64,000 bases of DNA from Candidatus Bathyarchaeia archaeon (GTDB lineage: Archaea; Thermoproteota; Bathyarchaeia; Bathyarchaeales; Bathycorpusculaceae), in contig JBEKBM010000001.1 in the NCBI GenBank assembly GCA_050015395.1, positions 64,001-128,000 of the forward strand, written 5' to 3'. Under the pieces are notes generated by a model. It searched no databases, was not told the origin of the DNA, and saw nothing but the letters and a program-made list of their open reading frames with translations. Positions 45,865 through 64,000 of the stretch are shown here, piece by piece (position 1 is the first letter of the stretch; every line of letters starts with the position of its first letter). The position numbers and the translations under genes are program-made.

Positions 45865-46249
45865 TCACTCCTTACAGCGTGGACAACTCATTTTTTTTGC
45901 TCCTTGTTTAACTGCTAAACTTACTGCAAAAGGAATTTTTGCTCTCTTACTTGGCGGTCTGGGCATTGTAGCATTTGAACTAAGCCAGTGTTGTTTTGAA
46001 TTTTGAGCTTTCACCATTGGCAGAAATATAGTTCCCCAGAAATCAGTATTTTTCTGGAAAAGAAGTTCAAAATCATAATCAGAATGCCGGTTGTAGATTT
46101 TCCTTCAAAGGCAAATGGCGGACATCAGCGCAGATAGTAGGCCTAAACTTCTTTTCGACATCTACCGTAACAACTTCATAATCTTCTTTGAATGCCTGGC
46201 TGAAACCTTCTTCACCGCTACAGAGGTCTACACAAAGAGGTTTAACCAT
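45865..46249 (-). pseudogene. Decayed phage-type DNA (cytosine-5) methyltransferase-like gene
   Basis: Manual translation gives MVKPLCVDLCSGEEGFSQAF...VVTVDVEKKFRPTICADV...* (46249-46079), then in another frame KNTDFWG...RAKIPFAVS. The central catalytic PC region is absent. Confidence 0.6.
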
Positions 46250-46558
46250 TATTCTTTGCCTCTTATGCTATTTGCCGTTAAAGAATTAACTGAGTTATCC
46301 CACTTATTCCTTGTGCAAATTTTATAATCACCAGAAACACAAATCCAGCTGCCTTCATCGCATTCGTGCGCGGTGGAGCGAATGAAAGTCTCGTCACTGT
46401 CGTCATCTCTTCAGGACATTGTGGCAATCAAATAAGCGGGCGCACAAACTATAAAACGCTTATATAGACAGTTTATACGTAAGAAGAGGGACCTTGCGAT
46501 AACTAAAAAACAGAACTTCGAAGAGCTTCTGGAAGAAGAATCCAAGTATTGGGGCTAT

Positions 46559-47500: not shown

Positions 47501-47719
47501 TTCTTTAGGTCAGCACGAACGACTAGCGCGCTTGTTTTTACAAAAAGATTCTCCGTTCGAGAAAAACATTAAGTTTAAAATAATGGTATAGAGGTGTGTA
47601 GCGCGCTGCCTTGTCCCGATATTATAAATTGAAGAATGTTGGGTGAGACTTCGGCCAAAACGTGTTCATCAACGAAGCCCGTTAGTGCTCAAACAAGCAA
47701 AAACGGACTTATAACCATT

Positions 47720-48000
47720 TTTAACCATTTATTTAATTCCCCTGCGCGCGCTTGCGCAGTACTCCGTCTCAACTAAGGAAAAAGCATAGCATGGGCATTA
47801 TTCAGTCCTCTCTTCTTGTTGTTAAAAACTTGCCAGCCTAAACTTTTCGCGACCGCTTTTGTACCGTCACTTGAAAAATCGTCAACGATGAACTTTCTGT
47901 TAATGGGTGGAATTACTCGACTAATCTGAGGTAGAACTATGGGTGACACTTCTTCACTATTATGAGTACACATCCACACATCAAACGGTTTTAAAGGCAT
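47720..48000 (-). pseudogene. Truncated, frameshifted GT2 glycosyltransferase
   Basis: MPLKPFDV.MCT.NS...IVDDFSSDGT..VAKSLGW.V is homologous to the N-terminus of 44448-45299. After the stop, VETEYCAS continues in another frame. Confidence 0.65.
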
Positions 48001-48097
48001 TTCTCTATCACCACATAGACATCTTCTTCCGACACCGCCTTTTATGATGAAATAATATCTTTCCTTGTAAAGACATGGAATGTTCATACGTTCCATT

Positions 48098-49105
48098 TTA
48101 GCATCCCTCATTTTTAATCCCCGCATTTTGTTTTTCAAATACCACACTTGGATAAGCCAATCTTGAGTTATTTTCCACCAGTTTTTTAAACTCTTGCAGA
48201 GAGATATTCGAAGCAATGATCGGTAGCTTATTTCCAGCTTTCTTCAAAAGGAATCTAACAATTTCGTTTTCTTCAACCTTATCTTCAAAAACCGCAAATC
48301 GAACTCTGAAGTTATTTTCCTCCAGAATATGAAATATCTCATTCACTTTTCCAGGTTCAAGATATGGAATCTCGGGATGCAGCTCCATAAGAATTTTTAT
48401 GTCCCTATTAAGAGTCTTAACCATTCCCTTAATTATCTCGTATTCAGAGCCTTCTACATCCATGCGAATAAAGTTCGGAGGAGTTTTGTCTTTGAAGAAA
48501 GTATCCACCGTCGCCACAGGTACTTCTTCTTCACTAACGATTTTGCCAATTTTGCCACTAACAGCAGCGTTTCTGTTCATAGTGCATAAATTAGTCTTGT
48601 CTGAAACGTACATAGTCCCCGATTTTGCATCTTCATCGCCAAATGCAAACTGGAACGTAGAAACATTCTTCAGATTATTTAGTTGCACATTCCTTTTCAG
48701 TAACTCAAAATTGCTGCGAACTGGTTCGACAGCATAGACTTTTCCGCTTTTCCCTACAAGTTGTGATTCAATCAGCACGTAATAACCGATGTTGGCTCCA
48801 ATATCTAAGACAATATCACCATCTTTGAGGGCACCTGAGTGCATCAAGTAGTCCGTACAGTTTGGTTCTCTTTTTTTGTACAAAAATAGGTCGAAGTGAA
48901 TACAGTTAATGCCACCTTTTCTTGGAAACAAAAGCATCTTGGATTTGTTCACCTCTACAATAGCGCTTTCAGGGATGTGTTTTAGATACGGAAGAATACT
49001 TCTCTTCGATAGCGATAACGCCAAAAGCATAAAAACTGTCTTAACAAAGCCTTTCTCTTTAGCTTGTTTGATGGTTTTATGGAATGGTAGTTTCATTTTC
49101 CCCAT
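48098..49105 (-). CDS. FkbM family methyltransferase
   Basis: LDIGANIGYY, AVEP, RMDVEGSE and ELHP. Confidence 0.9.
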   Translation of the reverse strand: MGKMKLPFHKTIKQAKEKGFVKTVFMLLALSLSKRSILPYLKHIPESAIVEVNKSKMLLFPRKGGINCIHFDLFLYKKREPNCTDYLMHSGALKDGDIVLDIGANIGYYVLIESQLVGKSGKVYAVEPVRSNFELLKRNVQLNNLKNVSTFQFAFGDEDAKSGTMYVSDKTNLCTMNRNAAVSGKIGKIVSEEEVPVATVDTFFKDKTPPNFIRMDVEGSEYEIIKGMVKTLNRDIKILMELHPEIPYLEPGKVNEIFHILEENNFRVRFAVFEDKVEENEIVRFLLKKAGNKLPIIASNISLQEFKKLVENNSRLAYPSVVFEKQNAGIKNEGC

Positions 49106-49179
49106 CTCTTTAGAATGGACAATCTTGTTTTTCTCCTTTTCAAGTCTCCTATGACTTTCAGCCTGCAGACTATCCTTTC

Positions 49180-49380
49180 CTAATTAGTGATTCTCCAAGC
49201 GTCTATATCTCTACCAAAGAAAATAGATTGAGAGACAGCATATTTCTCTACTTTCCCTTCCGAAAGAAGTTCAAACAAATATACCTTACAAGTCATACGC
49301 GCAACTCCCATTTCTTCGGATATGTTGGACGTTGTATCGCCTTCTTTCATGTGAACCCCATTATTCTCCATATCTACCAT
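49180..49380 (-). CDS. Small winged-HTH-like protein, possibly a remnant
   Basis: TTSNISEEMGVARMTCKVYLFELLSEGKV resembles a wHTH, with GGAGAG upstream. Confidence 0.4.
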   Translation of the reverse strand: MVDMENNGVHMKEGDTTSNISEEMGVARMTCKVYLFELLSEGKVEKYAVSQSIFFGRDIDAWRITN

Positions 49381-49574
49381 AATTCTCTCCTTTTCTTTCT
49401 ACTTTATCTTCGTGTTTTCCCAAATTTATCACTTCTTAGTTTTTAACTAGTTTGCTTGCTAATATATCTTCAAAAAAATCGTTGATTTTAACTGATTAAG
49501 GTTCAGAGGCTTGTCACACCAAAAAGCATCCAAATTCACAGGTGGGTAAACAACAATTGGGTCTTTATTGTGTT

Positions 49575-50645
49575 TTAGAGTTGGTAAATAAAGCGTTTTC
49601 CATGAGCCATGTCTTCGAGTTTTTGTCTTCCCTGAAGATGGAATTTTCTTATTAAAATTCTTCGATGGAGTCGTGCCTGCCTAACACGTTCAATAAACAG
49701 CTTATTCATGGTGAACAAATCTTTAATTGCACTTGCATAGGTAGCTTTTCTTTGTCTTGTTCGAGCCAGCTCGTATCTGAGTAAACTCCGTTGGAAGTGA
49801 GCAAAAAATATATAAAGCCAAAAAGAATATGGGGCGATCTTTAAATACATGGCGTGGAGGTTAAGCATCTCAAGCCTCAGATTTCTGTCGCTTATCAGAT
49901 TGCTGGCAGCTCGGCTACCTTTATGCTTGGCTTTTACATGGGGAATAAAAAGTAGCTTATAACCTGCACATGTCATCCGCCATCCAAGATCAACATCCTC
50001 ATAGTTGAAGATGAAGGTGCTGTCAAATCCGCCGACCCCTAAAAACGCGTCTTTTTTGACGAGCATAAATGCGCTCCTTAAGGATGGAACTTCATCTGTT
50101 TGCAGATTGCTTAGAATTTTGAGCGGCACTCCAGCGTTCCTACAATATGCAGTGTATCGGGTTCTATCCACCTTTTTTATGAAGTCTCCAGCCGAATCAA
50201 CAATTTCTGGTGCAAATCTAATAAGTAGAGGCTGAAGGCCTTGACACTTATCGGTTTGCAAATACTGCAGTAAAGGGTTTATGTCATCCACAACCATCGT
50301 GTCATCATCAGCGAAGAGAAGGATTGAAGAATCAGCCAATAGTGCTCCAAGGTTTCTTCCAAATGCAGGTTCTTTATCGTTTTCAGTGTTAATCAATACA
50401 AGTCTTACTTTTGTTAGATTCGGCTTGCCTTTTGACATGTCAAGCAAACTTTGCTCGGCGTCTTTCTCCGATTCGATTAAGTCTGTTACCAAAATAACTT
50501 CATATTTTATTGATAACCTACTTGTTGAATCCAATAAAAGGGTGACATATTTGTTGGGAAACTTTGGGAAAACTACAATAATACTTACAGTGGGTTCCCC
50601 TGTATTATTGGCGATACTTATTGTTTTCGAAATTACTCCTCCCAC
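49575..50645 (-). CDS. Glycosyltransferase family 2
   Basis: GRNLGA, FADDD, GGFD..F...YEDVDLGWR. Confidence 0.88.
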   Translation of the reverse strand: MGGVISKTISIANNTGEPTVSIIVVFPKFPNKYVTLLLDSTSRLSIKYEVILVTDLIESEKDAEQSLLDMSKGKPNLTKVRLVLINTENDKEPAFGRNLGALLADSSILLFADDDTMVVDDINPLLQYLQTDKCQGLQPLLIRFAPEIVDSAGDFIKKVDRTRYTAYCRNAGVPLKILSNLQTDEVPSLRSAFMLVKKDAFLGVGGFDSTFIFNYEDVDLGWRMTCAGYKLLFIPHVKAKHKGSRAASNLISDRNLRLEMLNLHAMYLKIAPYSFWLYIFFAHFQRSLLRYELARTRQRKATYASAIKDLFTMNKLFIERVRQARLHRRILIRKFHLQGRQKLEDMAHGKRFIYQL

Positions 50646-50715
50646 TGAAGTTTGCTTTGGCTAAGGCTAACGCTTAATGCATAGTGCCATGAAAGGTCTC
50701 TATTAATCTTTTGGA

Positions 50716-51864
50716 TTAACCTAGCTGAGTTCCTGTTAGTAAAGTTTGAACGTGAGACCATATTTTGCTTTGAAATGTTTCAGGAGTTAGAACGGAAATT
50801 TTACTCCATAATTGTTTGCGTTTATTTTCCCAACTTGCGCTTTCATTCTCCGATTCCATGTACTTAACAATTTTTTCTTTCAAATCATCATAGCTTTCCC
50901 ATCTGAACTCTTCAGGGATAAACTCTTTTATTCCTCCGCTATTATGAACCAGCGTGACGCAGCCGCTTGCTAAACCCTCAACGGGAGCTATGCCAAAGTG
51001 TTCTCCTTCCATCAAATGCACGTAAACCCTTGAGTCATGCAGAATTTTAAGCAGGTCTGTCCCTGGCAAGTTAGTTTTCAAAGTATAATTTTGGGCAAGG
51101 TTCTCGGAAAATTTGTTGAACCAATCTTTTTCTGCTTCAATTAATCCGCCGACGCTTACAAACTCGTATGATGGCAAGTCAACGGCTAACTTTTTCATTA
51201 TTTCGTGTCTTTTCACTGGAATAAAACGCGCCACATAGGTTACTCTTTTGCGCCTCTCCGATAGCGGCTTATCACACCAAAAATTATCCAAGTTCACAGG
51301 TGGGTAAACAACAATTGGGTCTTTTACGCCGTGTGTTTTCCAGTAGCGTTCAATCATTTCTCTGGTGTAGTTGCTGTTGCAGAAAACCAAATCAAGTTTA
51401 CTTGCTCCTTGTTCAACCCACTTCTTAAATAGCCAGAGGTAAACTTTTCTTTTCAGCTTAGCCCTGTCATAGTCAAAGTGTATTTCTGGAAAGTGAACGT
51501 ACGCAATGTTCTTCTTAGCCTTATTTAAGAAAACAGGTTCAAACGGGGAGGATGATTGTGTGGAAAACAAGTAATCATATTCCAAGCGGTCTCTATACCT
51601 TTTTAGTAATTTTGCAAAGTTTTGGCGTCTTTTGTAAATGGTGAAGGGTGGTTTAACCTCAATTCTTTTTCCCAAAGAATGAATAGTGACATTTTTAGGA
51701 AATTCTTCGCCTACAATCTCTCTATACCTGTTAGCGTCAAAATCGAAAGTCAGCAACTCTACTTTTTGTCTGTGGACAACTAAGGTTTTGATTACGTTGT
51801 GACATACTCTTTCGCCCCCGCCGTAAATATCCAAGTACGGGTGAATCACGAGAAACGTTGCCAA
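50716..51864 (-). CDS. Glycosyltransferase family 4, ALG11-like
   Basis: HPY....GGGERV, YVHFP, NSNYT, VYPP, EHFGI..VE..ASG and HNSGG. Confidence 0.88.
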   Translation of the reverse strand: MATFLVIHPYLDIYGGGERVCHNVIKTLVVHRQKVELLTFDFDANRYREIVGEEFPKNVTIHSLGKRIEVKPPFTIYKRRQNFAKLLKRYRDRLEYDYLFSTQSSSPFEPVFLNKAKKNIAYVHFPEIHFDYDRAKLKRKVYLWLFKKWVEQGASKLDLVFCNSNYTREMIERYWKTHGVKDPIVVYPPVNLDNFWCDKPLSERRKRVTYVARFIPVKRHEIMKKLAVDLPSYEFVSVGGLIEAEKDWFNKFSENLAQNYTLKTNLPGTDLLKILHDSRVYVHLMEGEHFGIAPVEGLASGCVTLVHNSGGIKEFIPEEFRWESYDDLKEKIVKYMESENESASWENKRKQLWSKISVLTPETFQSKIWSHVQTLLTGTQLG

Positions 51865-52188
51865 GTCATTCCAGCCTGATGTCTTACTCTCTTGATTATT
51901 TGATAAGCGTATTTAAATGGCACCTAATGAAGTTTTACTCAAAAGCTACCTATGCGGTAAGCCCTCTAGAATGCCTCAAACTAAAATATGACAAGGCTTA
52001 CATATAGCACGCTTGGCAATAACGCTATACCGAACCATCTTCCAAAGCAGGTGAAGCCTCTGGAAAAGCAAAAATCCGTCGCAATAATAGCCGTTAACTG
52101 GAACCAAAAGAAAACTTTAGCTGCCTGCCTTAAGCTCTTTGAAAAATAAAAGAAAAGGGGGAAATTAGTTTTTTTTCCTTGCGTGTGT

Positions 52189-54987
52189 TTATGGTTTTTT
52201 CCTGAGCATCAATAGAGCTAGTACAATAGCTACTACGATGATTACAACGAATAAGCCGGCGATTGCGGGAACAAAGTACATGTTAGCGACAGATGTCGGA
52301 GTAGCTGTTGGTGCGGTAGTAGCTGCAGGTGCCGGGTTAACTACGAAGTTGGATTCTGAGTATGATGGCCAGTAAGCGTTAGTTCCGTGGAATGTAGCGA
52401 TGACCATGTACGTTCCTGGTACATTTACAGTAGCAGTGTTATAATCGAAGCTGTAGTGGCCGCTCGCATCGCTTGTGACAGTGCCGAGGTCATGGTAGTT
52501 GCCGTTAGGGTCAATAATGGTGATGTCAACTGGTACGCCAGTAGTGTTTGACGGAATAGGATTCTGCATATACACGTATTCCATGTATGGAGTCATGCTT
52601 GCGTCAGAAACAGCTGCAACACCGTTTGGAAAGCGCGCCGCTATTGAAGACTGCGTAGTGCCAGCAGAAATGTCCAGTTCTGAGCCTTGTATCATTAAGC
52701 TTTGTCCCAAGGTGACACCTGATAATGGTGTTTCTACTGTTGTGGCTGTTGGTCCCATGCCGAAGGAGTAGATTTGGTTGTCGTAACCGTTTTCAGCTAT
52801 AAGGTAGCCGTCTGCCAGTGCGGTGCCACCAAGCATTCCAGCTGCATCCCAGAAGGTGATGTTCCAGATTGGTGCTCCGTTTGTTGCGTTCATGTCGCCT
52901 AGCATGAATCCGGCTTCAAGGTTTGGTCCTGGGCTGTGTTCCATTCCGTACCAGTACGCATTGCCTGATGCGAAAGCTCCGATGGTTGTGGGGAGGTTGT
53001 CCCAGTAGCCAGTATAGCCCATAGAAGGCGCTTTGTAGCTCCACAATAGCGCTCCAGTCGTAGTGTTGTAGGCGTATACGGTTCCGCCTTCGCCAATTGA
53101 GTCGCTGCTGTATAGCACGCCGTTATAGATGTTTGCTGAGGCGCCGTACATGTGGTTACTAACTTCAGATGCTGCTGATGTCCAGAGTAGTGCTCCTGTG
53201 GTTGCGCTATAGCCCATCCAAAGTGTTGTTTCTTTCTGGAATAATGTAAATACGCCGTTGCCTAGGGCTCCACCTTCGAGGGTTATGTTACCTGTTGGCC
53301 ATGGGTATGCTTGAGACCACACCACTTGGCCCATGGTAGCGGGGTTGGTGCTGATGGCAAATTGTGTGTAGCTAGCGGGTGTAGGATAACTTGTTTCACC
53401 GAGTATCGCTGCGGCTGTGCTGTATATGGCGAGTTGGTCTGCCTTGTCAAGGTATAAAAGTGATGCTGCAGATCCAGGCCCAAACATAGTCATAACAGTG
53501 GCAGTTGCAGCTGCAGGTAGAGTACCAGTGATATTATAAACAGTTGTGCCGACTGATGCGTCTACTTGTCCACCCAGTGGAGGTCTCCACATCCAGTAAC
53601 CGTTGGCAGCTACTGTTACGCTGTTTGAAGGATACGTGTCTTGGAGTGTTTTGGTGCTGTTCCATACGCTGAAGGTTTTGGCGAGGAGGTTGGCGGTGTA
53701 GATTATGAAACTACCGCTTGGGTCAGTAATCAGGCTTGAGGCCCCGAACATTGCTGAAGAGGCTGGCACATTCCAGAGATTGCATATCCAATTGCCGGTG
53801 AATGCGTCAAACATTGACCAGACGCTCGATCCGTTAGCGGCTGTCCAAATGCTCCAGAGATAGTCGATAGTACCGTGTTGATTGGGTGATTCGTAGTCAA
53901 GTTCCTGCCCCATGCTAAGTTGCGGATAACTCTGTCCGGCGAAGCCAAATCCTAATTGGAATGGACCTGTACTGTTTTGATACCAGACTTGTTGTCCAGT
54001 TTGTAAATTGACGTCAACGAAGCCGTACTCTGGTGGAGTAAGAATGTTATAGTAGAGTTGCCCACCCATGATTATTGGAGGCGCGAATTTTCCCTCATAT
54101 GAAAGACCTGTGTAGTAGTTGTCACCACCAGTAGCAATAGCACCTGTGTTACCTGCAACGCCTCCGAAGGTTATGGGTTTAGTCCATGCGATATGGGCGG
54201 TTGTTGGCGATTGTGTGTAGTCATTGAAGTTTGAGCCTATCTGGTTGATAGCTAGCCAGTCGCCTGTGATATAATCCCAGCTCGTGTGTCCACTTTGACT
54301 GACTGGATTACTCCAGTATTGAGTTGGTAACGGATAAGCGGGTGCGGATGGAATAGCCGTCGATTGCACGTTGACTGTAACTGCGCTGGATGTGTCAGGC
54401 TCGTAATAGTTGCCTATGCTACTGTAGCCTGTTACAAAAACGGACTCCCAAAAAGCCAATACCACAGAAGCCGGTGTGCCTGGGGGCATTCCTGCAGCGG
54501 CAGGGCCATATGCGGCATATTGCTGGGCTTCGGCGAGTTGTGCTGGGTTCAGATTATTGCCTGCGAGAAGTTGTCCAGGATAGACAAATTTGAATGTATA
54601 ATTACCTGTTGTTGCTGGAATGACGGTTTTGAAAATCGTGCCAACGGGGTCTGACGTGTAGGGTCCCAATGTTACTGTGGTGCCGTCTGGCTTCGTTTCG
54701 ATTATAGTTAGATTATACCATCGGTCACCGTATTCTCCGGTCGCGGTTGGTGGATAGTTGCTCATCCAAGCAAAGAGGCTGATTGTTTGACCGACGCCAG
54801 CGGGACTTGGGAAAGCATTAATGTAGGCATGTGATGGAATATCAACTTTGCCTGCAGCTGCTTGTGCGCCAACGAGTGGTACTAGAACTGCGAAAGAACT
54901 AGCAGCTAATATCAAAATTAAAGTAATTGCGCAAATTAATTTGTTTCCGCGGATTGTCAGTTTATTCATAGTGAAAGATTCAGACAT
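52189..54987 (-). CDS. Cell-surface PQQ-binding-like beta-propeller protein
   Basis: Signal peptide, repeated A.TG..LW/VW blade motifs, Ig-like C-terminal domain, Thr/Pro linker, TM anchor and basic tail. Confidence 0.85.
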   Translation of the reverse strand: MSESFTMNKLTIRGNKLICAITLILILAASSFAVLVPLVGAQAAAGKVDIPSHAYINAFPSPAGVGQTISLFAWMSNYPPTATGEYGDRWYNLTIIETKPDGTTVTLGPYTSDPVGTIFKTVIPATTGNYTFKFVYPGQLLAGNNLNPAQLAEAQQYAAYGPAAAGMPPGTPASVVLAFWESVFVTGYSSIGNYYEPDTSSAVTVNVQSTAIPSAPAYPLPTQYWSNPVSQSGHTSWDYITGDWLAINQIGSNFNDYTQSPTTAHIAWTKPITFGGVAGNTGAIATGGDNYYTGLSYEGKFAPPIIMGGQLYYNILTPPEYGFVDVNLQTGQQVWYQNSTGPFQLGFGFAGQSYPQLSMGQELDYESPNQHGTIDYLWSIWTAANGSSVWSMFDAFTGNWICNLWNVPASSAMFGASSLITDPSGSFIIYTANLLAKTFSVWNSTKTLQDTYPSNSVTVAANGYWMWRPPLGGQVDASVGTTVYNITGTLPAAATATVMTMFGPGSAASLLYLDKADQLAIYSTAAAILGETSYPTPASYTQFAISTNPATMGQVVWSQAYPWPTGNITLEGGALGNGVFTLFQKETTLWMGYSATTGALLWTSAASEVSNHMYGASANIYNGVLYSSDSIGEGGTVYAYNTTTGALLWSYKAPSMGYTGYWDNLPTTIGAFASGNAYWYGMEHSPGPNLEAGFMLGDMNATNGAPIWNITFWDAAGMLGGTALADGYLIAENGYDNQIYSFGMGPTATTVETPLSGVTLGQSLMIQGSELDISAGTTQSSIAARFPNGVAAVSDASMTPYMEYVYMQNPIPSNTTGVPVDITIIDPNGNYHDLGTVTSDASGHYSFDYNTATVNVPGTYMVIATFHGTNAYWPSYSESNFVVNPAPAATTAPTATPTSVANMYFVPAIAGLFVVIIVVAIVLALLMLRKKP

Positions 54988-55211
54988 TTTTCTTTTTCTC
55001 CTATATTTTATGGTAATAAAATAATACCAGTACTTAATTGGCGCTTTTGGTACTTAACGCTTTGCTGATCGGACGCCGAGCGACAGAAAACATGTGCATG
55101 CGCAACAAGCTGGCAGAAAGTAAACAGGCTAATAAAGCCTACAAAAAATGAAAACGCAGCCAAAAAGTGGCACCGAAACATCCATATTAAAGAATTGGGT
55201 TGCTACTGATT

Positions 55212-56057
55212 TTACTCCAGCTGCTTCCACAGAGAGCTGAAGTACACTTGAGAGAGAGCTACTACATTAGGGCTATTTGACCACAGGTGCAGTCCAGACG
55301 TTAAGCTTGCTGTGTTGTTGAAGGCGATGGCAACTTCCACGTTGTCAAAGATGGCCATCACTGCTGAAGGTGGGGATGGAATGGTTCTTAGTTTAAAGTT
55401 CAGATTTTTTGTTAATGCTTTAGTTACCCAGTTTGGGAGAGAGTCAGGTTGCGGTTTTTCCGTCACTACTCTAAAGGCTACGCCTTGTCCGAGGACACTT
55501 CCTATTTGATCCTCGAATAGGATGCTTGCTTGTTTGAACCGTTTCCAAGTGGTGACGACTTCCACGCCATGAAGAACGTTTTCCAGTGCATATCGATATT
55601 TTTTACCACGATCGCCCTCCGAAACAACACCCAAACAAGGACTCCCCACAAACATATCCGTATGCAAGGGAATTTGGCTAAATTTTTCCACAAGATGCTT
55701 TGTTTTTGCACGGATACTTTTGAGCTCATGGGCTTTCCGTTGAATTAGAGTTTCTAGGGCTTCGCCTATAGGAGTTGCAGTGAAAGTAGTTGGCGCGGTT
55801 AATTTTCTTTGTATTAAGCCCATGTCTTGGAGACTAGAAATTATCAAGTATATGTCTTGTCGGTTGACAAGGGAAACCTCGGCGATTGTTTTTGCCTTCG
55901 AGCTTCCTATCATGAGAAGCGCAAGGTATACCCTAGCTTGGCGAGCAGTGAGACCTAAACTGACCAAGGCATCGACATCTTCCTCTTCAATCTCCACCGC
56001 CGTATTTGACAAATTACTGAGCGTGTTGGTATGCGGTGGTTTCGATAAATACGACAT
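55212..56057 (-). CDS. TrmB family transcriptional regulator
   Basis: LGLT..QARVYLALL, I...S.VNRQDIY....L...GL, and a C-terminal effector domain (IFDN.EV, LWSN). Confidence 0.88.
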   Translation of the reverse strand: MSYLSKPPHTNTLSNLSNTAVEIEEEDVDALVSLGLTARQARVYLALLMIGSSKAKTIAEVSLVNRQDIYLIISSLQDMGLIQRKLTAPTTFTATPIGEALETLIQRKAHELKSIRAKTKHLVEKFSQIPLHTDMFVGSPCLGVVSEGDRGKKYRYALENVLHGVEVVTTWKRFKQASILFEDQIGSVLGQGVAFRVVTEKPQPDSLPNWVTKALTKNLNFKLRTIPSPPSAVMAIFDNVEVAIAFNNTASLTSGLHLWSNSPNVVALSQVYFSSLWKQLE

Positions 56058-56527: not shown

Positions 56528-57829
56528 ATGAAAAAAGCCTCCGAGCTTGAAAAAGGCAAGCTAGAAGTTTACGGCTCGCGTGAAAATTGGCCGCCTTACA
56601 CGTATAGGGATTACCCAGACATAAAACCAGAAACATACCAAGTCTTCATTGAGTTCCTAAATACGGAAAATACGTCAGGCAGATTAATGGAGCTTCAACC
56701 GTGGATTTCTGTTTGCGATTCAAAATGCGCTTTTTGCTATTTTCCAACAACTCCCACAAGCAAGGTCAAAATGGAGTCCTATCTTGAACTGCTCAAGAAA
56801 GAACTCGAAATGTACGCTAAAACCAAGTATGTTAAGACAAGCGTGTTCGACGAAATAGTTTTAGGAGGCGGAACCCCCAGTGTCTTGACTGCTGAGCAGA
56901 TGATCGACCTAATAGATTTTTGCAAGGCAAAATTCAACATTAACAAGGAGTACTTTATCAAAGTAACTGGTTCCTCAAAGACACTTGCGCTCAAGAAAAT
57001 TGACAAACTCGCCGAGTACGGCGTGTACCAAGTGGACATGGGTGCACAAACATTTGACGATAAACTAAGGAAAAAGCTTTGCTTGCCCGACAGCGCGGCG
57101 GACGTTGAAAAAGCCGTTCGACACGCACGAAAACTGAATTTATGTGTATGCGTGGACCTCATGTACAATCTTCCTGGGCAGACAATGGAAAGCTGGATCA
57201 GTACGCTAAAGAAGGCGATTGAACTGGATGTGGAGATTGACACTTACTCGTTACATGTGGATCCAGGCACTATACTTAAAAAAATGATTGAGACAGGAGT
57301 TTCTCCGCCACAAGGAGATGCAGAGTATGAGAAGCAAATGTACCTTACCGCCTACAAAATGCTGACTGATGCAGGCTATAAGGCAGTAGGTCACGACCGC
57401 TTTAGCCGAGTCGAATGGCACATGCGAGAGAACTGTCTCAACGGATGGCCATGGGGAGGCATTCTCACAACAGGAGCCGGATGCTTCATGGGATACCTCC
57501 AGAAATTCTCTTACTCGAACATTGAAAACATAAACGATTACATGGCAACTGTAAAAGCAGGGAAACTACCAATAAGTAGACTTTCAGAGTCAACGACTGA
57601 AGATATGATGAGACGGACAATGACCCGATTATATCTACGGTTGCCAGTAAACAAAAAAGAATTTATGCAAAAATTTGGCACCACACCAGAGAAAGTCTTT
57701 CCAAAGCAACTTCAAAAGCTAAAAGATAAGGGATTAATTGAAATTGACGACAAAGAGGTTAGAATAACAAAGTTAGGTGAGATTTGGAAAGGAAATATTG
57801 CTTGGGAATTCGCACCTAACCAAACTTAA
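56528..57829 (+). CDS. HemN-like radical SAM protein, divergent
   Basis: CDSKCAFC, GGGTPS, GAQTF, DLMYNLPGQT and HemN-type C-terminus. Confidence 0.85.
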   Translation: MKKASELEKGKLEVYGSRENWPPYTYRDYPDIKPETYQVFIEFLNTENTSGRLMELQPWISVCDSKCAFCYFPTTPTSKVKMESYLELLKKELEMYAKTKYVKTSVFDEIVLGGGTPSVLTAEQMIDLIDFCKAKFNINKEYFIKVTGSSKTLALKKIDKLAEYGVYQVDMGAQTFDDKLRKKLCLPDSAADVEKAVRHARKLNLCVCVDLMYNLPGQTMESWISTLKKAIELDVEIDTYSLHVDPGTILKKMIETGVSPPQGDAEYEKQMYLTAYKMLTDAGYKAVGHDRFSRVEWHMRENCLNGWPWGGILTTGAGCFMGYLQKFSYSNIENINDYMATVKAGKLPISRLSESTTEDMMRRTMTRLYLRLPVNKKEFMQKFGTTPEKVFPKQLQKLKDKGLIEIDDKEVRITKLGEIWKGNIAWEFAPNQT

Positions 57830-58332
57830 TTTTTTTTCCTTGGTGCCATTAACGTCATAATAAACGCTTGTTTGCGAAGCCGGCTTATCCAAAAAGACAT
57901 CCTCATTTGTATGTGATTAACTTAGCTGCAATTTTATCGCAAATAAATTAGTGTGTTTTAGCCTCAGTTCGGTCTCCCGTTTTGTAATTTGGTTTTTAAC
58001 CCTGCAGGTTCACTAACGAAAATGCCTTTTTTAGACTTTTCTGGACTTTTTTCAGACGTTTAGCGACGCAACTTGCAAACAGTTCAAGCCCTGAACCAAA
58101 AAAGCAATCTGAAAAGGCTTTCAGAAAACAGGGAGAAAGCCATCATTTTTGCAATATTTTTCCTACACATTAATGCAGCGCTATGAGAACATCGCCTAAT
58201 CATAACTAGTTCTTGGTCAAAAAGCGGGTAGCTAAATACACTCGTACCTTTTAATTTAAAACTGGATTATTGCAATCGCAACTAAAAAATTAAACGCTTT
58301 TGGGTTAAAAAAGAAAAGGAATTGGGATTTTA

Positions 58333-59007
58333 TTAATGCCTCATCGGCTGAAGCCCATACCAGGTCATCACTTTAGCAATAATAGGTACTATTACGCCTA
58401 AAGCAATGCTAGGAACGAATTCCAACACGAAGCCATACAATCCAGCTACCCCTAGAATAGATGTGTCTGCCCAAAGTCCATGATTCATGGACAGCGCCGG
58501 TGCGAGTGCAACAGTGGAGTTGAGATAAGCTTGGATTATTGCAGTTATCACCGCAGCTGTTAAGCCTGCACCTAGCATGCGTTTGAAATTCGTTGATTTA
58601 TTGCACAATGCTCCAGCCATATAACCGATGATAACAGCGTTAACGAGGTATCCTAGCATGCTCATGTCGCCGAAAAAGTTGTAATGCCCAGAGGAAGCTT
58701 CATAGTACCCTGTATAAAGCCCTGCGCTGGCTACGTAATACATGCCGCCCGTGATAAATCCTGCTGCGCCGCCAGCCCATTTGTTCCAGAGCAAGCCTAG
58801 CACTAGTGGGATGCCGAGAACGATCATTTGAGCAAAGCCAGAGGTTATAATGACACCAATGGTAGCGATTGTACCAGTAGTTCCGAGTATATGATGGGTT
58901 CCGCTGACGTTGACATAGATTGCTAGAAAGAAGATTAGTAGCACTAGAATGAGGGGTATGATTATGGCGTAGAATATGTCAGCCAGTTTAAATTTTTCTG
59001 TTTCCAA
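58333..59007 (-). CDS. Membrane protein, ECF S-component-like
   Basis: Five to six TM segments in 224 aa with a GLLW..WAG..AG pattern. Confidence 0.55.
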   Translation of the reverse strand: METEKFKLADIFYAIIIPLILVLLIFFLAIYVNVSGTHHILGTTGTIATIGVIITSGFAQMIVLGIPLVLGLLWNKWAGGAAGFITGGMYYVASAGLYTGYYEASSGHYNFFGDMSMLGYLVNAVIIGYMAGALCNKSTNFKRMLGAGLTAAVITAIIQAYLNSTVALAPALSMNHGLWADTSILGVAGLYGFVLEFVPSIALGVIVPIIAKVMTWYGLQPMRH

Positions 59008-59297
59008 TTTTTATCCCTTGACTTATTTTACGTGGTGGCATGTTTATAAGCTTAATGCTTGCAAGCTTGGCATACAAGTGTTTCTGAAGCTAAAAATACA
59101 GCGCTGAACAAACGTGAGTATTTAGCTCTTGTTTTTTCTTATTTTCGTTTTAGTGATTTCTTGCTTAAATCAATCATGATAACGCTTCGCGGTACCCTTT
59201 TTACCTATGAAGACTGAAAAATATTTGGAGCAGATTTGAACATCTGACAGTAAAGTCTATGTTAATTGTGCCAAAAAAGTACATGGATAAAACACGT

Positions 59298-59380
59298 TTC
59301 TATGTTGAAAGTGCGGGCATTAATTCTATGTTGAACTATGTTGAATCATATTTGAAGCATATTAGAAGCATCTAGTAGAC
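59298..59380. repeat. Drifting 10-11 bp repeat array
   Basis: CTATGTTGAA x3, followed by CATATTTGAA, GCATATTAGAA and GCATCTAGTAG. Confidence 0.7.
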
Positions 59381-59543
59381 CGGGGGGTAGGCTTGAGCAC
59401 ACACACAAATACCCTAAGACAAAAGCCAGGAGCCAAATACATACGAACAAACAATAAAAGTACAAAGCTTTAAAAAAACGTCAATTTAAAGAAGCTTTTT
59501 ATTAAATGGCATAAAATAAAAGAAAAGAGAAAGGAAATGAAGT

Positions 59544-60908
59544 TTATTCTTGCTGTCGCAGCATAGCTTTTGATCGGAGCACAGCACCTTTCAGGTCAAT
59601 TCTTGCGGGGCAAACGTAACTACAGTGTCCACAGCCAGTGCAATAATCCGCATTTAGCTTGCTCATGGCATCGATGTTCATTTTATCAAACGCTTGCTTA
59701 ATCAGTATCGGGCTGAGATTGTGGCAGCATACACGCATGCAAGCACCGCATCTCATGCATTGGTATTCTTTGACTTTTTCAGGGGCGAATGCTTTGGCTT
59801 TAGGCAGTTTGGGCTCTTTCGATTCGGTGGTGGGTTTGAGCTTGCCAACTCTATCAAGTGCTGGTACAGTTAAGTTCATAATGACTAGCGCTACAAAGGA
59901 GGCGCCGAAGAACTGCATGTAGGTTATCATGAGCACGGTCAATATTGCCACGCCGACTCCGAAAATTACCTGTCCAGTATATGTTAACGGTGTAGTCGCA
60001 GGATCTGTTGCCATGAAGAAGGCCAGGAATATTGAACTTCCGATGAACAGCAAGAACAAAAGTCGTACAGTAACACCTGCATCACCATAAGCAAAAGACA
60101 AGAGCAATGACATTATGGCAACGGTCACAAAGTAAGCTCCAGTTATTCTCCATTTCACGTATTTGCGCGCTACGATAAAGAAGCCTATGCCAACGATGAT
60201 GACTGCAACGGTACAGGCTCCTCCAGGCCAAGCGTGGAACTTATCTAGAAACATTATTTGAAGCAAGTTGTTAGTTGTTGCTGCTGGAGCCTTGAGGTTG
60301 GCGTTAGAAAAACAGGCGATCATATAGCTACCAAATCCGGCTAGGCCATTGCCTTTTACTGCGCTGGCTAAGCCAATTGGACCCGCCAATGAAGGTACGC
60401 CAAGCAAAGAGCTTTTTAGATGATCTATTGCTATTAGCAACGTGTTAATGAAGGGTATCATAACGACTAGTTTTGCAGCTGCCGCAGGATTCACGTATTT
60501 TCTGCCTGTAAGACCGACGATTTTTTTGAAAACGACCAAACCTATGGCAGACATTAGGGCAACAAAGGCGAAACATTGAGGTGCCTCCAGAGGAAACAGG
60601 TCGACTGTGGCCATACTGGGGATGCCGAGTACGTAGATGTCAGTGACGATTAAGCCAAAAACGGCGGCGGACATGAGGTTAAGTGGGCTGTCAACTGTGA
60701 CTTTGTGCAGTAGAGCGTCAAGTCCTACGGCGATACCGACAGCGATTATGGCGTTGATAGCTAATGTAAGCCCTAGGTTCCAGCCATCTGGGCTTTTCTC
60801 AGCGGACCAGAGAACTGCTGATATGACGGTAATTATAACGAGTGAGACGAAGGTGTAAGTCATCAGTTTATCTTTAGTCATCGATGAATATTCTTTTGGT
60901 TTAGACAT
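59544..60908 (-). CDS. RnfD/NqrB-family membrane protein fused to an RnfC-like 2x[4Fe-4S] domain
   Basis: SAAV.GL, K...G..G....NPA, WRI, FFMATDPATTP, G..IFG and N..VP.LD, then CMRCGACMRVC...LSP and CTGCGHCSYVCPARI. Confidence 0.85.
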   Translation of the reverse strand: MSKPKEYSSMTKDKLMTYTFVSLVIITVISAVLWSAEKSPDGWNLGLTLAINAIIAVGIAVGLDALLHKVTVDSPLNLMSAAVFGLIVTDIYVLGIPSMATVDLFPLEAPQCFAFVALMSAIGLVVFKKIVGLTGRKYVNPAAAAKLVVMIPFINTLLIAIDHLKSSLLGVPSLAGPIGLASAVKGNGLAGFGSYMIACFSNANLKAPAATTNNLLQIMFLDKFHAWPGGACTVAVIIVGIGFFIVARKYVKWRITGAYFVTVAIMSLLLSFAYGDAGVTVRLLFLLFIGSSIFLAFFMATDPATTPLTYTGQVIFGVGVAILTVLMITYMQFFGASFVALVIMNLTVPALDRVGKLKPTTESKEPKLPKAKAFAPEKVKEYQCMRCGACMRVCCHNLSPILIKQAFDKMNIDAMSKLNADYCTGCGHCSYVCPARIDLKGAVLRSKAMLRQQE

Positions 60909-61159
60909 TATTTCTTAATCTCCTTGATTTCTCCTTTCAATTTAGCGCTGGTTGGTTTTATAAGACTTTCCCAAAGCCTATGCATGTTCTATATCTAAGA
61001 AGGAAAAATAAGAAAGCAAAAGCCAACGGGTTTTCTTTTGAAGATCAAAATTGCCTCACTTGATTGATTTCTGCAACCTTTGCAGAGAAATAGAAAGCTG
61101 GTTTCTAGGAGTAAGTTTTATATCGCATTAACTAATCTTATTTTCAACCGTGATATTAC

Positions 61160-62239
61160 ATGGCTCCAAATAAGTCACCATTGTACATGGTGGTTTGGCG
61201 GTGTACAAGGAACTGTGTTGGCAATTGCATGTACTGCAGTTATACCAAAGACTATGCTAAAGACACCGAGCTGGACACCAAAGGTGCCAAAAAGATGGTT
61301 GACGAAATCCATGACTTCGGTTCGCCATGGTTTGGCATTAGCGGCGGAGAACCCTTGATTCGAGAGGACATCTTTGAAGTTATTGCTTATGCTGAAGAAA
61401 AGTATGACATGGAAATTAGTCTTATCACAAGTGGGTTTGCGTTTGATGAGGAACGGTTTGATAAGCTTAGAAAGTATAATGTTCACACGGCAATCAGCAT
61501 TGATGGAAACAGGGAATCAAATGAAATTATTCGACGCAAAGGTAGCTATGACAAAGCAGTATATGCTATGAAGAAGCTCTCCGAGGTTGGATTACTAGAC
61601 TGCTTAGTCACAACCATGACCAAGTATAACATCAAGCACATGGCGCACCCTGCAGCACTTGCAGAGGAATACAAAGCCCGTATGCTTGTCTACCATAACC
61701 TAGTTCCAGTTGGCAGAGCAGGAAGCAATATGCCTGACTTAGCACCGACACCTGAACAATATGAGGAAACTTTTAACGAAATATACGACATCCAAAGAAA
61801 ACTTATGGGCAAAGTTAAAGTCAACGTTTACTCGCCTTTCTACGCCAGAATCGTACGTCAGAAAAACCCAGTTGACTTCTGGGACTGGTATCATGAGGGC
61901 TATCTCGGCAGATGCACCATCGGCGGCAACTACGTTGGCATAACTGAAAACGGAGACTACCGTAGCTGCGGTTTCCATGAAGGCTACCGTTTAGGAAACG
62001 TCAAAGACAAGAAATTGACTAAGGTTTGGGATGATCTGCAACACAGCGAACTGCACCTGAAGTTGCGTGACAAGAGCAACATTAAGGGCAAATGCGGAGT
62101 TTGTGAGTACCGAGAAATCTGTGGTGGATGCAGAACCCGCGCCGAATACTACACGGGCGACCTGTTCGAGTCAGACCCAGCCTGCAACTACATACCAAAG
62201 CTGCTTCAGGAAGACCCAAAAGCCCTTAAAAAACAATAA
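61160..62239 (+). CDS. Radical SAM/SPASM protein (NirJ/AhbC-D/PqqE-like)
   Basis: CVGNCMYC, SGGEPL, SIDG, VPVGR and SPASM CGVC.Y..ICGGCR.RA...DPAC. Confidence 0.9.
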   Translation: MAPNKSPLYMVVWRCTRNCVGNCMYCSYTKDYAKDTELDTKGAKKMVDEIHDFGSPWFGISGGEPLIREDIFEVIAYAEEKYDMEISLITSGFAFDEERFDKLRKYNVHTAISIDGNRESNEIIRRKGSYDKAVYAMKKLSEVGLLDCLVTTMTKYNIKHMAHPAALAEEYKARMLVYHNLVPVGRAGSNMPDLAPTPEQYEETFNEIYDIQRKLMGKVKVNVYSPFYARIVRQKNPVDFWDWYHEGYLGRCTIGGNYVGITENGDYRSCGFHEGYRLGNVKDKKLTKVWDDLQHSELHLKLRDKSNIKGKCGVCEYREICGGCRTRAEYYTGDLFESDPACNYIPKLLQEDPKALKKQ

Positions 62240-62499: not shown

Positions 62500-64000
62500 T
62501 CAAGTTTGCGTTTGATTGTAATTGCTTAAGATTTTGAAGATGTCGTACCTATCGTTTGAATAAATTAGTTCTAAAAATGAGCAGCTGGCCATATTACTAT
62601 TAAGTTGGTTTTTGTCATAAACGATGAATTCTATGTTATTTTCTGCGATGTAGTCCTTAAAGTCTAAGGTGGATACTGTAAATTGGCCGGGTTTGAAATT
62701 GAAGAGGTTTTCCAGTTCGTTTGGCTGCAATGTTGGAAAACTGTTTTTTGAAAGGGTGAGAACTTGATACTGCCGTGTAACTGTCTGGTTGATGTTGAGT
62801 TCGTTGAATTGGTATTGGAATCTCACAGCATCTATTTGTCTACTTGCCAAGGCACCGATGTTTCCCCAATTGGGCAAATCAGTAAAGTTAAAAGCGAAAG
62901 CAATCTGGTCTTTGTCATCATAGAGGCCTATGTAGTTATCTTTTAAGTCTAAGTTTGAAAAATTAACAACTGCCCATTGTGTTCCATCAGTAGTTTTTGA
63001 AGGCACATCCCATGGGTTAACCCAGTTCATAAGTTGAGGTATCTGCGCTTCATCAAAGTTAAATTGAAGGTCAAAATAAGTGCTTAAGTATAATGTTACA
63101 TTAGAAATATCGTTATTTAAGGGAGTGACAGCCCAAGAGACATTAATTGGGTAACTATCATTCTGAACAAGCATCGTATCCGTTAATTCCACATAGTCAT
63201 TGGAGTACAGGAACTCTACCTTTGCGGGGTAACTTTGTTCATCAAAAGATACCTCCCTGCTTAAGTCAGAGAGAGCAAAATTGTAATTTGTGCCATTTTG
63301 GGTGAATGATATGAAATCTCCAGCTGTAGAAGAGTAGGAAACTCGATACCAGACCTGATTTATGGGTACGTAATTTTCGTCGGTAATATCACCGTTCGCC
63401 TCGTAAGCCTTCACCAAAGTTTGTGAACCCTGAATTTCGTAAGACAGACTCAAAACGGACTGGGCAATTTCATTTGTTCCCTCGGCAGCGTTGGTTTGCG
63501 CAATTACGGTTTTGCCAGAAAAGATTGAAAACCAAAAGCCGGGAATTTGGGTAACAACTACAGTTGCGTCACCAGGATAGTTTTGATTAAGCCAAACTCC
63601 AGCATCATACGCTTTTATGTCAGATGTCGAGTAGAAAACGCTGGCTTCCATTATTTTCCCGTACACAGTGTCTGAACGAAAAACAATTAGCAGACACATT
63701 AATACAATTAAAGAGACAGTAGCTATCTTTAACCAATTTTTGCGCAATCCTTGTTTGTTTTTGGCGTAGTAGGCTGAGAACTTTTCCACTATAAAGACAA
63801 CGGAAACAGCCGCGAAAATTGCCATCGGGGGCGTCAAATAGTAAATGAACCATTGAAAAGGCATGTACAAACCAAAAAGGTAAGACTCAGCGAAAAAAAG
63901 AGGAACAAAGAAACTAAGAAGCAATATCAAGTAAAAAAGCGGCTTCTTATTTACCCTCAACAACAGGTAATATGCAATGAAAATGCCACTTAAAGCCAAG
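62500..64000 (-). CDS. Partial large membrane protein (possibly GT-C-like), 5-prime end outside the window
   Basis: The frame is open to the window edge. Several TM helices are followed by a large Asn-rich extracellular domain (A..WL..N, I.FIV.D, IF.I). Confidence 0.7.
   Translation of the reverse strand, partial: LALSGIFIAYYLLLRVNKKPLFYLILLLSFFVPLFFAESYLFGLYMPFQWFIYYLTPPMAIFAAVSVVFIVEKFSAYYAKNKQGLRKNWLKIATVSLIVLMCLLIVFRSDTVYGKIMEASVFYSTSDIKAYDAGVWLNQNYPGDATVVVTQIPGFWFSIFSGKTVIAQTNAAEGTNEIAQSVLSLSYEIQGSQTLVKAYEANGDITDENYVPINQVWYRVSYSSTAGDFISFTQNGTNYNFALSDLSREVSFDEQSYPAKVEFLYSNDYVELTDTMLVQNDSYPINVSWAVTPLNNDISNVTLYLSTYFDLQFNFDEAQIPQLMNWVNPWDVPSKTTDGTQWAVVNFSNLDLKDNYIGLYDDKDQIAFAFNFTDLPNWGNIGALASRQIDAVRFQYQFNELNINQTVTRQYQVLTLSKNSFPTLQPNELENLFNFKPGQFTVSTLDFKDYIAENNIEFIVYDKNQLNSNMASCSFLELIYSNDRYDIFKILSNYNQTQT

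Follow-up and report, generated by a model that had tools for sequence, protein, structure and literature searches.

The DNA analysed here, referred to as the window, is a stretch of 64,000 nucleotides from a Candidatus Bathyarchaeia archaeon (assembly GCA_050015395.1, contig JBEKBM010000001.1, positions 64,001 to 128,000 of the forward strand). Close to its end the minus strand encodes a protein of 454 amino acids (aa), in which a membrane domain of the RnfD/NqrB type is followed by a ferredoxin domain of the type found in RnfC. A first-pass annotation of the sequence had described this protein as an orphan RnfD fused to an RnfC-type dicluster domain and devoid of the motif for covalent attachment of flavin mononucleotide (FMN). 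The gene and its domains are laid out as follows.

59544..60908, minus strand: the whole gene, 454 aa with an ATG start, from the list of open reading frames (ORFs); the stop codon occupies 59544-59546.
59847..60884, minus strand: residues 9-354, the RnfD/NqrB-type membrane domain, for which ten transmembrane (TM) helices are predicted, from PF03116 and Foldseek.
59775..59846, minus strand: a Lys-rich cytoplasmic linker leading from TM10 to the Fe-S domain, residues 355-378, from the translation.
59547..59774, minus strand: the RnfC-type 2x[4Fe-4S] ferredoxin domain, residues 379-454, from profile, PDB and Foldseek matches.
59724-59759, minus strand: the first cluster motif, CMRCGACMRVCC, C384..C395 (residues 384-395), from the translation.
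59607-59642, minus strand: the second cluster motif, CTGCGHCSYVCP, C423..P434 (residues 423-434), from the translation.

The N-terminus MSKPKEYS recurs in the five homologues read and in the family consensus. Pfam assigns residues 9-354 to PF03116 (NQR2_RnfD_RnfE) with 106.6 bits (gathering score 27.7), and residues 379-436 match several of its 4Fe-4S dicluster models. In NCBIfam the profile rnfD (TIGR01946) ranks first for the protein with 72.8 bits against a curated cut-off of 207.05, and nqrB (TIGR01937) reaches 41.6 bits against 349.9. The top NCBIfam match of residues 378-453 is rnfC (TIGR01945), aligned over profile positions 359-434 of 435, which is the C-terminal extremity of RnfC. Among PDB sequences the membrane domain is matched best by RnfD of A. 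vinelandii (8ahx_D, E value 8.5e-15), followed by RnfD of A. woodii and C. tetanomorphum and then by NqrB, and the best match of the C-terminal domain is RnfC (7zc6_C, E value 7.3e-9), which ranks above all other ferredoxin domains. The fusion proposed in the first-pass annotation is thereby borne out, with a dicluster domain that is covalently attached to the membrane protein and lacks the rest of RnfC (7ZC6_C, 9ERI_C): Pfam detects no RnfC_N, Complex1_51K (the NADH/FMN part) or SLBB domain in the 454-aa protein, and likewise no PF00175 NAD-binding domain and no FrhB_FdhB_N or FrhB_FdhB_C domain.

The predicted structure agrees with these assignments. An AlphaFold (AF2) model built from an alignment of 113 sequences, with a predicted local distance difference test score (pLDDT) of 91.0 and a predicted template modelling score (pTM) of 0.91, was used in preference to a model from 12 sequences (pLDDT 64.5), which was set aside. 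The model has the ten-helix fold of RnfD (7ZC6_D, 8AHX_D, 9ERI_D) and NqrB. Foldseek superposes it on PDB entries of RnfD (9eri_D, E value 4.2e-10, TM-score on target 0.76; 7zc6_D, TM-score on target 0.77) and also on NqrB chains, including 7xk3_B. The C-terminal 75-85 residues superpose on RnfC 9eri_C with a root-mean-square deviation of 1.0 Å over 75 columns at 32% identity, and also match 7zc6_C. Basic segments are found at the N-terminus, in the short loops 135-140 and 247-252 and in the linker 352-378 (8 Lys and Arg), and the opposite face of the protein carries a 75-residue linker (158-232) and the loop 332-336. Both termini and the Lys-rich linker, in which pLDDT falls to 67-74, are on the Lys/Arg-rich, cytoplasmic side. 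This predicted topology agrees with that of Rnf, where both termini of RnfD are cytoplasmic arms that hold RnfC (PMC9588780), and would place the ferredoxin domain on the same membrane face that RnfC occupies on RnfD.

The flavin sites of RnfD have been described in the Rnf complex. The flavinylated Thr153 lies within a 'five-helix linker', Glu185 lines the isoalloxazine pocket, and in C. tetanomorphum RnfD a YPEG stretch precedes Ser284, which contacts N5 of FMN. Asn124 and Asp248 of the same protein are assigned to a Na+/riboflavin site, and the riboflavin is positioned 7.7 Å from FMN and 11.7 Å from the cluster [4Fe-4S]RnfC-2 (PMC9588780). Three segments of the window protein align with these regions.

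60471..60491, minus strand: NPAAAAK, residues 140-146; in a pairwise alignment N140 corresponds to Asn124 and K146 to Arg130 of C. tetanomorphum RnfD.
60213..60437, minus strand: the remodelled outer 'five-helix linker', residues 158-232, which lacks the Thr motif in the alignment.
59988..60014, minus strand: MATDPATTP, residues 299-307; D302 corresponds to Asp248 of C. tetanomorphum RnfD.

The motifs named by the first-pass annotation can all be read in the translation. The sequence nearest to the flavinylation motif is PAATT (residues 208-212), GETS is replaced by GGAC (229-232), the YPEG-type motif is missing, with FFGA (333-336) standing where canonical RnfD has YPEG, MATDP.T.P is kept, and the C-terminus carries two CxxCxxCxxxC motifs. 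In a pairwise alignment the A. vinelandii segment 'dgmTGATal' falls over 'ngLAGFGsy' of the window protein, with TGAT over LAGF. The conservation of these positions was followed in an alignment of 113 rows (A3), of which 83 represent the family (the window protein, 77 proteins derived from the loci described below and 5 representatives), 4 are intermediate (P0150, P0151, P0173 and P0177) and 26 are other RnfD/NqrB-like proteins; the latter were picked from phmmer matches by their similarity to the query and are biased to divergent forms. The flavinylation motif xxA[TS]P[LI] occupies one aligned place in 12 of these 26 rows and is found there in no family row, as had been claimed for the single protein. 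A looser form of the pattern occurs in 7/83 family rows at scattered, non-conserved places. G230, which comes from the change of GETS to GGAC and aligns with the pocket residue Glu185 of 7zc6_D, is present in 83/83 family rows, against Glu in 19/26 of the others. G335 aligns with the Glu of YPEG and is likewise present in 83/83 family rows, against Glu or Asp in 23/26 of the others.

The inner site shows the reverse. N140, part of the NPA..K motif, is found in 83/83 family rows and 25/26 other RnfD-like rows, and D302, part of (F)MATD..T(S/T)P, in 83/83 and 26/26, so that the Asn/Asp pair of the riboflavin/Na+ site is shared with RnfD and NqrB. The polar residues D64, N140, D302 and N345 of the Rnf cation path are conserved in the family, and the eight Cys ligands of the clusters are present in 81/83 family rows, the exceptions (P0125 and P0129) lacking the entire domain. 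The alignment indicates that the three lost motifs (the Thr, the Glu of GETS and YPEG) are not independent, as all of them belong to the outer, extracellular-side FMN pocket. Since the loss concerns the outer pocket and the inner site is kept, the protein appears to be a specific half of the RnfD electron path rather than a generally degenerate RnfD. It would retain the cytoplasm-proximal half of that path, fused to the next carrier, the dicluster domain of RnfC. The outer linker is predicted with confidence (pLDDT 83-95 over residues 161-230) and carries residues that are invariant in the family: H163, H225 and W227 in 83/83 rows and C199 in 82/83, together with F192. Well predicted and equipped with these family-specific His, Cys, His and Trp residues, the linker is not decaying, an indication that the former FMN pocket has taken on another role.

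The designation of the protein as an orphan is not upheld. We searched for relatives in a collection based on GTDB with one genome per species, where 244 stretches encode a relative, and fetched the best 80 of these loci, which share 53-85% identity in the best tblastn segment. The titles of these 80 loci name Bathyarchaeia or Bathyarchaeota with the exception of six bins (one Nanoarchaeia, one 'uncultured bacterium' and four other bacterial). Four loci with Limnocylindrales, Sulfotelmatobacter, Acidoferrum and 'uncultured bacterium' labels (L006, L050, L051 and L077) encode family members of 55-79% identity, and L006 and L051 also show neighbour genes typical of Bathyarchaeia loci. These four are probably mis-binned contigs. 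A word-indexed search returned 1521 homologues at an E value of at most 0.001 among 8000 scored candidates; one is 100% identical, and homologues at 85-87% identity include several named RnfD of Candidatus Bathyarchaeia. The named matches among the best 120 homologues are nearly all 'Candidatus Bathyarchaeia archaeon', with one Nanoarchaeia label. An exhaustive phmmer search of 1.84 billion cluster representatives gave 3200 matches at E values of at most 1e-3 and 31 at most 1e-30, a number that indicates a narrow family. A cluster look-up of ten representatives returned generic RnfD names for 3/10.

In a midpoint-rooted FastTree phylogeny of the membrane domain, the 83 family rows form a clade with a support of 0.985, and together with the 4 intermediate rows they form a clade with a support of 0.842. 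The family is monophyletic, its sequence is conserved in the 80 species-level loci fetched, and the feature is not a product of chance. In place of an orphan there is a family represented in 244 species-level genomes, with a conserved neighbourhood.

Some members of the family are longer than the window protein and carry a further module. FrhB-family proteins are the input subunits, containing F420, flavin adenine dinucleotide (FAD) and Fe-S clusters, of F420 hydrogenase and F420H2 dehydrogenase. Fusions to FrhB occur in 10 of the best 120 homologue clusters and in 3 of the best 80 loci (L017, L019 and L057). The fused proteins are 715-732 aa long, and their FrhB_FdhB_N and FrhB_FdhB_C domains, which we found in P0121, P0127, L017, L019 and L057, come after the dicluster domain, in place of an NADH module. 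P0121 scores 120.7 bits for FrhB_FdhB_C and 54.5 bits for FrhB_FdhB_N in Pfam. The matches to specific curated models are below their cut-offs, as with PRK09325, 'coenzyme F420-reducing hydrogenase subunit beta' (191 bits against 269, NCBIfam, L017), FpoF (146.9 against 475, L017) and FrhB (157.7 against 331.5). Fused forms appear at three or more separate places of the tree, beside unfused relatives. Three stand-alone FrhB homologues of 284-297 aa (P0307, P0375 and P0383), encoded on contigs of 84-198 kb, are 57-65% identical to the fused module and start exactly at the linker motif that follows the dicluster.

Two candidate arrangements of this module were rejected. The short 'FrhB' matches P0277, P0301 and P0303 begin inside TM10 or the Fe-S domain, and are more likely broken or mis-started fused genes than split forms. 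A separate FrhB gene beside the unfused members was not found either: tblastn at an E value of 1e-3 matched just the 3 fused loci, and neither the 64-kb window nor the 10-kb flanks of the 77 unfused loci yielded an FrhB-like sequence. The fusions point to F420H2 as one probable electron input to the family. They resemble the FpoF/FrhB-type inputs of Fpo and Fqo, in that an FrhB-family module is joined to a membrane protein through Fe-S clusters, and differ from them in the membrane partner, which is RnfD-like instead of complex-I-like, and in the window protein, which has no FrhB module.

Other inputs are attached to more distant RnfD-like domains, also lacking the flavinylation motif. P0163 (1131 aa) combines such a domain with Nqo3-type ferredoxin and molybdopterin oxidoreductase (formate-dehydrogenase-like) domains, and P0209 (1013 aa) with NuoF-like domains, that is, with an NADH module. 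P0189 and P0253 are ordinary RnfC-RnfD fusions, in which RnfC_N, Complex1_51K and SLBB are detected. A size-targeted search for longer fused forms of 796-2270 aa found none, which is weak evidence; phmmer did return P0163 and P0209.

Genes for the remainder of an Rnf complex do not accompany the family. In the window, 56 ORFs of at least 80 aa were scanned with Pfam (7 at E values of at most 0.01, 49 at most 1e-5), and 0/56 match Rnf-Nqr (RnfA/E), FMN_bind (PF04205), RnfC_N, Complex1_51K or ApbE (PF02424). The statement of the first-pass annotation that no rnfA, B, C, E or G gene flanks the protein therefore stands for the whole window. For the neighbourhoods, the 80 loci and the window were searched for ORFs of 70 aa or more, these were clustered by BLASTP, and neighbours were counted within five genes of the target in these 81 loci; the counts are lower bounds, as some loci are on short contigs, and the synteny partly reflects shared ancestry, as the 80 loci belong mostly to one archaeal class. 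The same Rnf and ApbE families were found by Pfam in none of 148 + 11 neighbour-cluster representatives from flanks within 10 kb. The scanned representatives and the window neighbours stand for 676/716 ORFs within five genes of the target. What surrounds the gene in the window is the following.

58333..59007, minus strand: a polytopic membrane protein of 224 aa, the same-strand downstream neighbour, conserved among the loci.
61160..62239, plus strand: a radical S-adenosylmethionine (SAM)/SPASM enzyme of the AhbD/NirJ-like group, the divergent neighbour, from Pfam Radical_SAM and SPASM.
56528..57829, plus strand: a HemN-family radical SAM enzyme, the convergent neighbour, from Pfam Radical_SAM and HemN_C.
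62500-63999, minus strand: a large membrane protein of the ~770-aa type, open at the window end; also seen at L017:3402-5714.

The 224-aa membrane protein is found near the target in 55/81 loci, at position +1 on the same strand in 49 of them, and is a candidate partner subunit. The spacer between the two genes has a median of 197 bp in 50 loci and measures 536 bp in the window, where it (59008-59543) contains no notable ORF, FrhB remnant or Rfam match; Rfam gives no match anywhere in 57000-62000. The protein has no relative in Pfam, NCBIfam or PDB, with a weak lead to the S-components of energy-coupling factor (ECF) transporters (Atlas score 0.87; 1/56 members matching PF12822 with an E value of 0.0012).

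Radical SAM enzymes are the other constant neighbours. The SPASM enzyme, whose top NCBIfam match is AhbD (199.5 bits against a cut-off of 500) and which is below all curated cut-offs, occurs near the target in 64/81 loci, mostly divergent at -1 or -2, and 31 loci have a second SPASM paralogue, which shares 48% identity with the first group. The HemN-family enzyme is found in 60/81 loci, convergent at +2. Its top matches are ChuW/HutW, HemW and HemN, all below cut-off (TIGR04107, 188 bits against 400), and its top PDB match is HemN 1olt (E value 1.1e-19). A B12-binding radical SAM enzyme, matching BchE best (255 bits against 481), accompanies the target in 42/81 loci. The PDB relatives of these enzymes are HemN/NocN, PqqE and AprD4/TokK-type enzymes; these matches gave no support to an assignment of the neighbours to known lipid enzymes. 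The closest named relatives of all four act on tetrapyrroles, which is a lead and no more.

Further genes recur less often. Tandem membrane proteins of ~770 aa are encoded upstream on the same strand in 39/81 loci and have no Pfam or NCBIfam match. Surface proteins with beta-propellers of the pyrroloquinoline quinone (PQQ) type occur in 27/81 loci, and a 153-aa protein with no Pfam match, in which a helix-turn-helix and two TM helices can be recognized by eye, in 24/81. An MtrH-like methyltransferase and a small B12-binding corrinoid protein are encoded 4-5 genes upstream in 12-15 loci (for example L002, L015, L017, L021, L047 and L063), and CobS, CobD and MobA-like cobamide genes are found in a few loci. 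Together with the B12-binding radical SAM enzyme, these genes lend a corrinoid character to the region. In 5 loci an AsnC/AhbA-like regulator or decarboxylase-like gene is present nearby.

Elsewhere in the window, an F420-type methylene-tetrahydromethanopterin (H4MPT) dehydrogenase is encoded (10328-11206, plus strand; PF01993 MTD, 396 bits). The gene immediately after it (11310-13037, plus strand) encodes a protein of 575 aa, in which an unassigned N-terminal stretch of ~270 aa precedes the Mpt_N domain known from methylene-H4MPT dehydrogenase of the NAD(P) type. Two different types of dehydrogenase for one step of one-carbon metabolism thus adjoin at 10328-13037. Two paralogues of 204 aa with a DUF116 domain stand in tandem at 24848-25462 and 25651-26265 (both plus strand). 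The region 44000-56000 may be a cell-envelope island: it holds glycosyltransferase and methyltransferase genes of low GC content (0.38-0.40) beside a segment with a GC content of 0.49, in which a 932-aa surface protein with a PQQ-type propeller and MG2 domains is encoded (52189-54987).

We propose that the junction of RnfD and RnfC in Rnf gave rise to this protein and that it acts as a stand-alone membrane redox module, a reading to which we give even odds. It probably moves electrons between the cytoplasm and the membrane outside any Rnf complex. In Rnf the path has been described as leading from the FMN of RnfD through its riboflavin to the clusters of RnfC, and from there through the FMN of RnfC to NAD+ (PMC12174285). 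The portion of this path that would be kept comprises the RnfD-fold domain with its Asn/Asp pair and the tethered cytoplasmic dicluster. The outer FMN pocket would have been rebuilt around the invariant His163, Cys199, His225 and Trp227, and the partners that feed this pocket in Rnf (RnfG, RnfA/E, RnfB and ApbE) do not appear to be encoded nearby. In the fused relatives, FrhB would take the place of the NADH/FMN part of RnfC.

The cofactors, the direction of flow, the acceptor and any coupling to ions can then be proposed by analogy. Electrons might enter the fused forms from F420H2 through FrhB, and the window form from a separately encoded FrhB homologue or a ferredoxin. As between RnfC and RnfD, electrons would be exchanged between the two [4Fe-4S] clusters and a non-covalent flavin of the riboflavin type that the membrane domain would bind. 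Candidates for the acceptor are the outer pocket in its rebuilt form, the 224-aa neighbour and a carrier that is either lipid-soluble or extracellular, and electrons might also flow in the reverse direction. With D64, N140, D302 and N345, the polar residues of the Rnf cation path, all kept, the protein might also couple this flow to ions. The first-pass annotation had arrived at a minimal stand-alone membrane redox or ion-translocating protein, or a subunit of a non-Rnf complex; a membrane redox protein of a non-Rnf system, outside the canonical Rnf operon, is also where our analysis leads, and what that account missed, besides the family, is the F420H2 input to which the FrhB-fused relatives point.

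Several observations weigh against this proposal. The case for flavin binding is made by two conserved residues and by homology. An FrhB module is missing from the window protein, and neither the window nor the 10-kb flanks of the unfused relatives contain an FrhB gene. The rnfD score is far below its cut-off (72.8 against 207), and the function may have drifted further than we assume. The conserved neighbours are radical SAM genes and not respiratory genes, so that a biosynthetic role fits them at least as well, and the 80 loci come mostly from one archaeal class, which makes their shared synteny in part a matter of shared ancestry.

The biosynthetic role, the main rival of our reading, would make the protein a dedicated membrane-bound reductase or cofactor carrier for the neighbouring radical SAM enzymes (the HemN-family enzyme, the two AhbD/NirJ-like SPASM enzymes and the B12-binding, BchE-like enzyme). 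These enzymes might modify a membrane-associated substrate, for example a tetrapyrrole or a lipid, with low-potential electrons supplied by the protein. Alternatively, their product might serve the protein as a cofactor, for example a tetrapyrrole such as haem, with His163 and His225 as its ligands where FMN was once bound. Of all the conserved signals, the neighbourhood is the strongest (SPASM 64/81, HemN-like 60/81, B12-binding 42/81), and it agrees with such a role through the named relatives of all four enzymes (AhbD/NirJ, ChuW/HemW/HemN and BchE), the AsnC/AhbA-like regulator or decarboxylase-like gene in 5 loci, and the two invariant His residues and one Cys at the former FMN pocket. We nevertheless regard the role as unlikely, at perhaps one chance among several. 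All the matches are far below the curated cut-offs (188 against 400, 199-222 against 500 and 255 against 481), and the superfamilies also use many non-tetrapyrrole substrates. Since the genes run divergently or convergently on the other strand, they do not share an operon with the target. The analysis detected no haem-binding family, and the FrhB fusions suit a general redox input better than the role of a biosynthetic helper.

A rather improbable alternative, which overlaps with the stand-alone redox module, is one-way export of electrons to an extracellular acceptor, such as humic quinones or Fe(III) in peat. A cytoplasmic reductant would deliver the electrons to the Fe-S clusters, from which they would reach the outside by way of the inner flavin and then the rebuilt outer pocket. 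This is the role proposed for bacterial NQR/RNF-like complexes, which are thought to pass electrons outward from NAD(P)H. As described, these complexes consist of an NqrB/RnfD-like domain that has no flavinylated Thr and is fused to an NAD-binding PF00175 domain, and of an extracytosolic FMN-binding partner (Meheust et al. 2021, PMC8238504; Huang et al. 2024, PMC11334425). The present family parallels them in its Thr-less membrane domain with a cytosolic input, placed outside a six-subunit complex. Its outer pocket is conserved and not decayed, several contig names among the loci include 'palsa', 'bog' or 'fen', and large PQQ-type beta-propeller surface proteins are encoded near the target in 27/81 loci. 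Bathyarchaeota are described as devoid of multihaem cytochromes in the available portion of one survey (PMC9534799). The extracytosolic FMN_bind partner and ApbE that define the bacterial systems are, however, absent from all neighbourhoods scanned. No cofactor has been assigned to the outer pocket, and the surface proteins are common archaeal neighbours that have no redox domain.

In so far as the published descriptions extend, these two-subunit bacterial complexes are the closest described systems, and the principle of a redox module built on a Thr-less RnfD-like domain is already known from them (PMC8238504, PMC11334425). The novelty of the finding is reduced accordingly, since RnfD-like domains that lack the Thr and carry a fused cytosolic input had been described in bacteria. 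The family shares with the bacterial systems one of their three defining features, the Thr-less domain. The input differs, being PF00175 in theirs and an RnfC-type dicluster, with or without FrhB, in the present family; the third feature, an adjoining FMN_bind subunit (NqrC/RnfG-like) with ApbE, has no counterpart in the neighbourhoods scanned. Those systems are described in bacteria, and the present family is archaeal, from Bathyarchaeia.

A long shot would unite several of these elements. The family might be a missing membrane redox module of Bathyarchaeia, encoded by one or two genes and operating with neither cytochromes nor covalent flavin. Electrons from F420H2 or ferredoxin would pass through the RnfC-type clusters and the riboflavin site to a new outer cofactor site (His163/Cys199/His225), which would hold a tetrapyrrole or metal made or inserted by the flanking radical SAM enzymes, and on to an extracellular or membrane acceptor, possibly with coupling to ions.

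We consider it very doubtful that the protein is instead a channel for solutes or ions that has the urea/ammonium-transporter fold and in which the Fe-S domain merely senses the redox state. The kinship of the RnfD fold with urea and Amt transporters is stated in the literature (PMC12174285), Foldseek relates the model to 3me1_A and AmtB at E values of 4e-4 to 1e-2, and the cation-path residues D64, N140, D302 and N345 are conserved. Yet the likeness to RnfD and NqrB is far stronger, with a TM-score on target of 0.76 against at most 0.43 for the transporters, which trail far behind. What is fused to the membrane domain is precisely the part of RnfC that acts as an electron wire, with an F420 oxidoreductase module added behind it in relatives. 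That the protein is an ordinary RnfD subunit with its partner genes elsewhere in the genome, as the database name RnfD suggests and as the extent of the genome data covered (the 64-kb window) would permit, we hold to be most improbable, given that the flavinylation site is absent, 83/83 family rows have lost two acidic residues of the pocket, the rnfD cut-off is not reached, the fused RnfC-type domain comes without the NADH/FMN part, no rnf genes are found within 10 kb in 80 relatives, and surveys of Bathyarchaeia report no complete Rnf in the portions available (PMC7886697, PMC9534799).

Published work on this group provides the setting for such a module. Loh et al. report no complete Rnf for Bathy-6 genomes, describe FrhB homologues without hydrogenase subunits in them, and leave the source of F420H2 unresolved in the text available (PMC7886697). 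Matches to RnfD by BLAST are merely listed for 3/19 metagenome-assembled genomes in another survey (PMC9534799). In our literature search we found no paper that pairs RnfD with FrhB. The papers retrieved on RnfD and Bathyarchaeota include none that describes the present protein, and those on 'RnfD-like' proteins are bacterial work only.

Bathyarchaeia are among the most abundant archaea of sediments, soils and peat, and their energy conservation and redox balance are unresolved. In the portions available, the surveys report neither a complete Rnf nor multihaem cytochromes in these archaea, nor a clear source or sink of F420H2 (PMC7886697, PMC9534799). The family offers a concrete, testable candidate for a link between Fe-S clusters and an RnfD-type membrane domain, with an F420 module in some lineages. 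It presents the RnfD-RnfC junction as a separable evolutionary module that is joined to FrhB, NuoF-like or molybdopterin inputs depending on the lineage, and it would carry the idea of NQR/RNF-like systems beyond bacteria, into archaea, and add F420 and Fe-S inputs to that of NAD(P)H. Labels of the type 'RnfABCDGE subunit D' on these genes should not be counted as evidence of Rnf in metabolic reconstructions. The family is widespread, mis-labelled and mechanistically suggestive in a major group of uncultured archaea.

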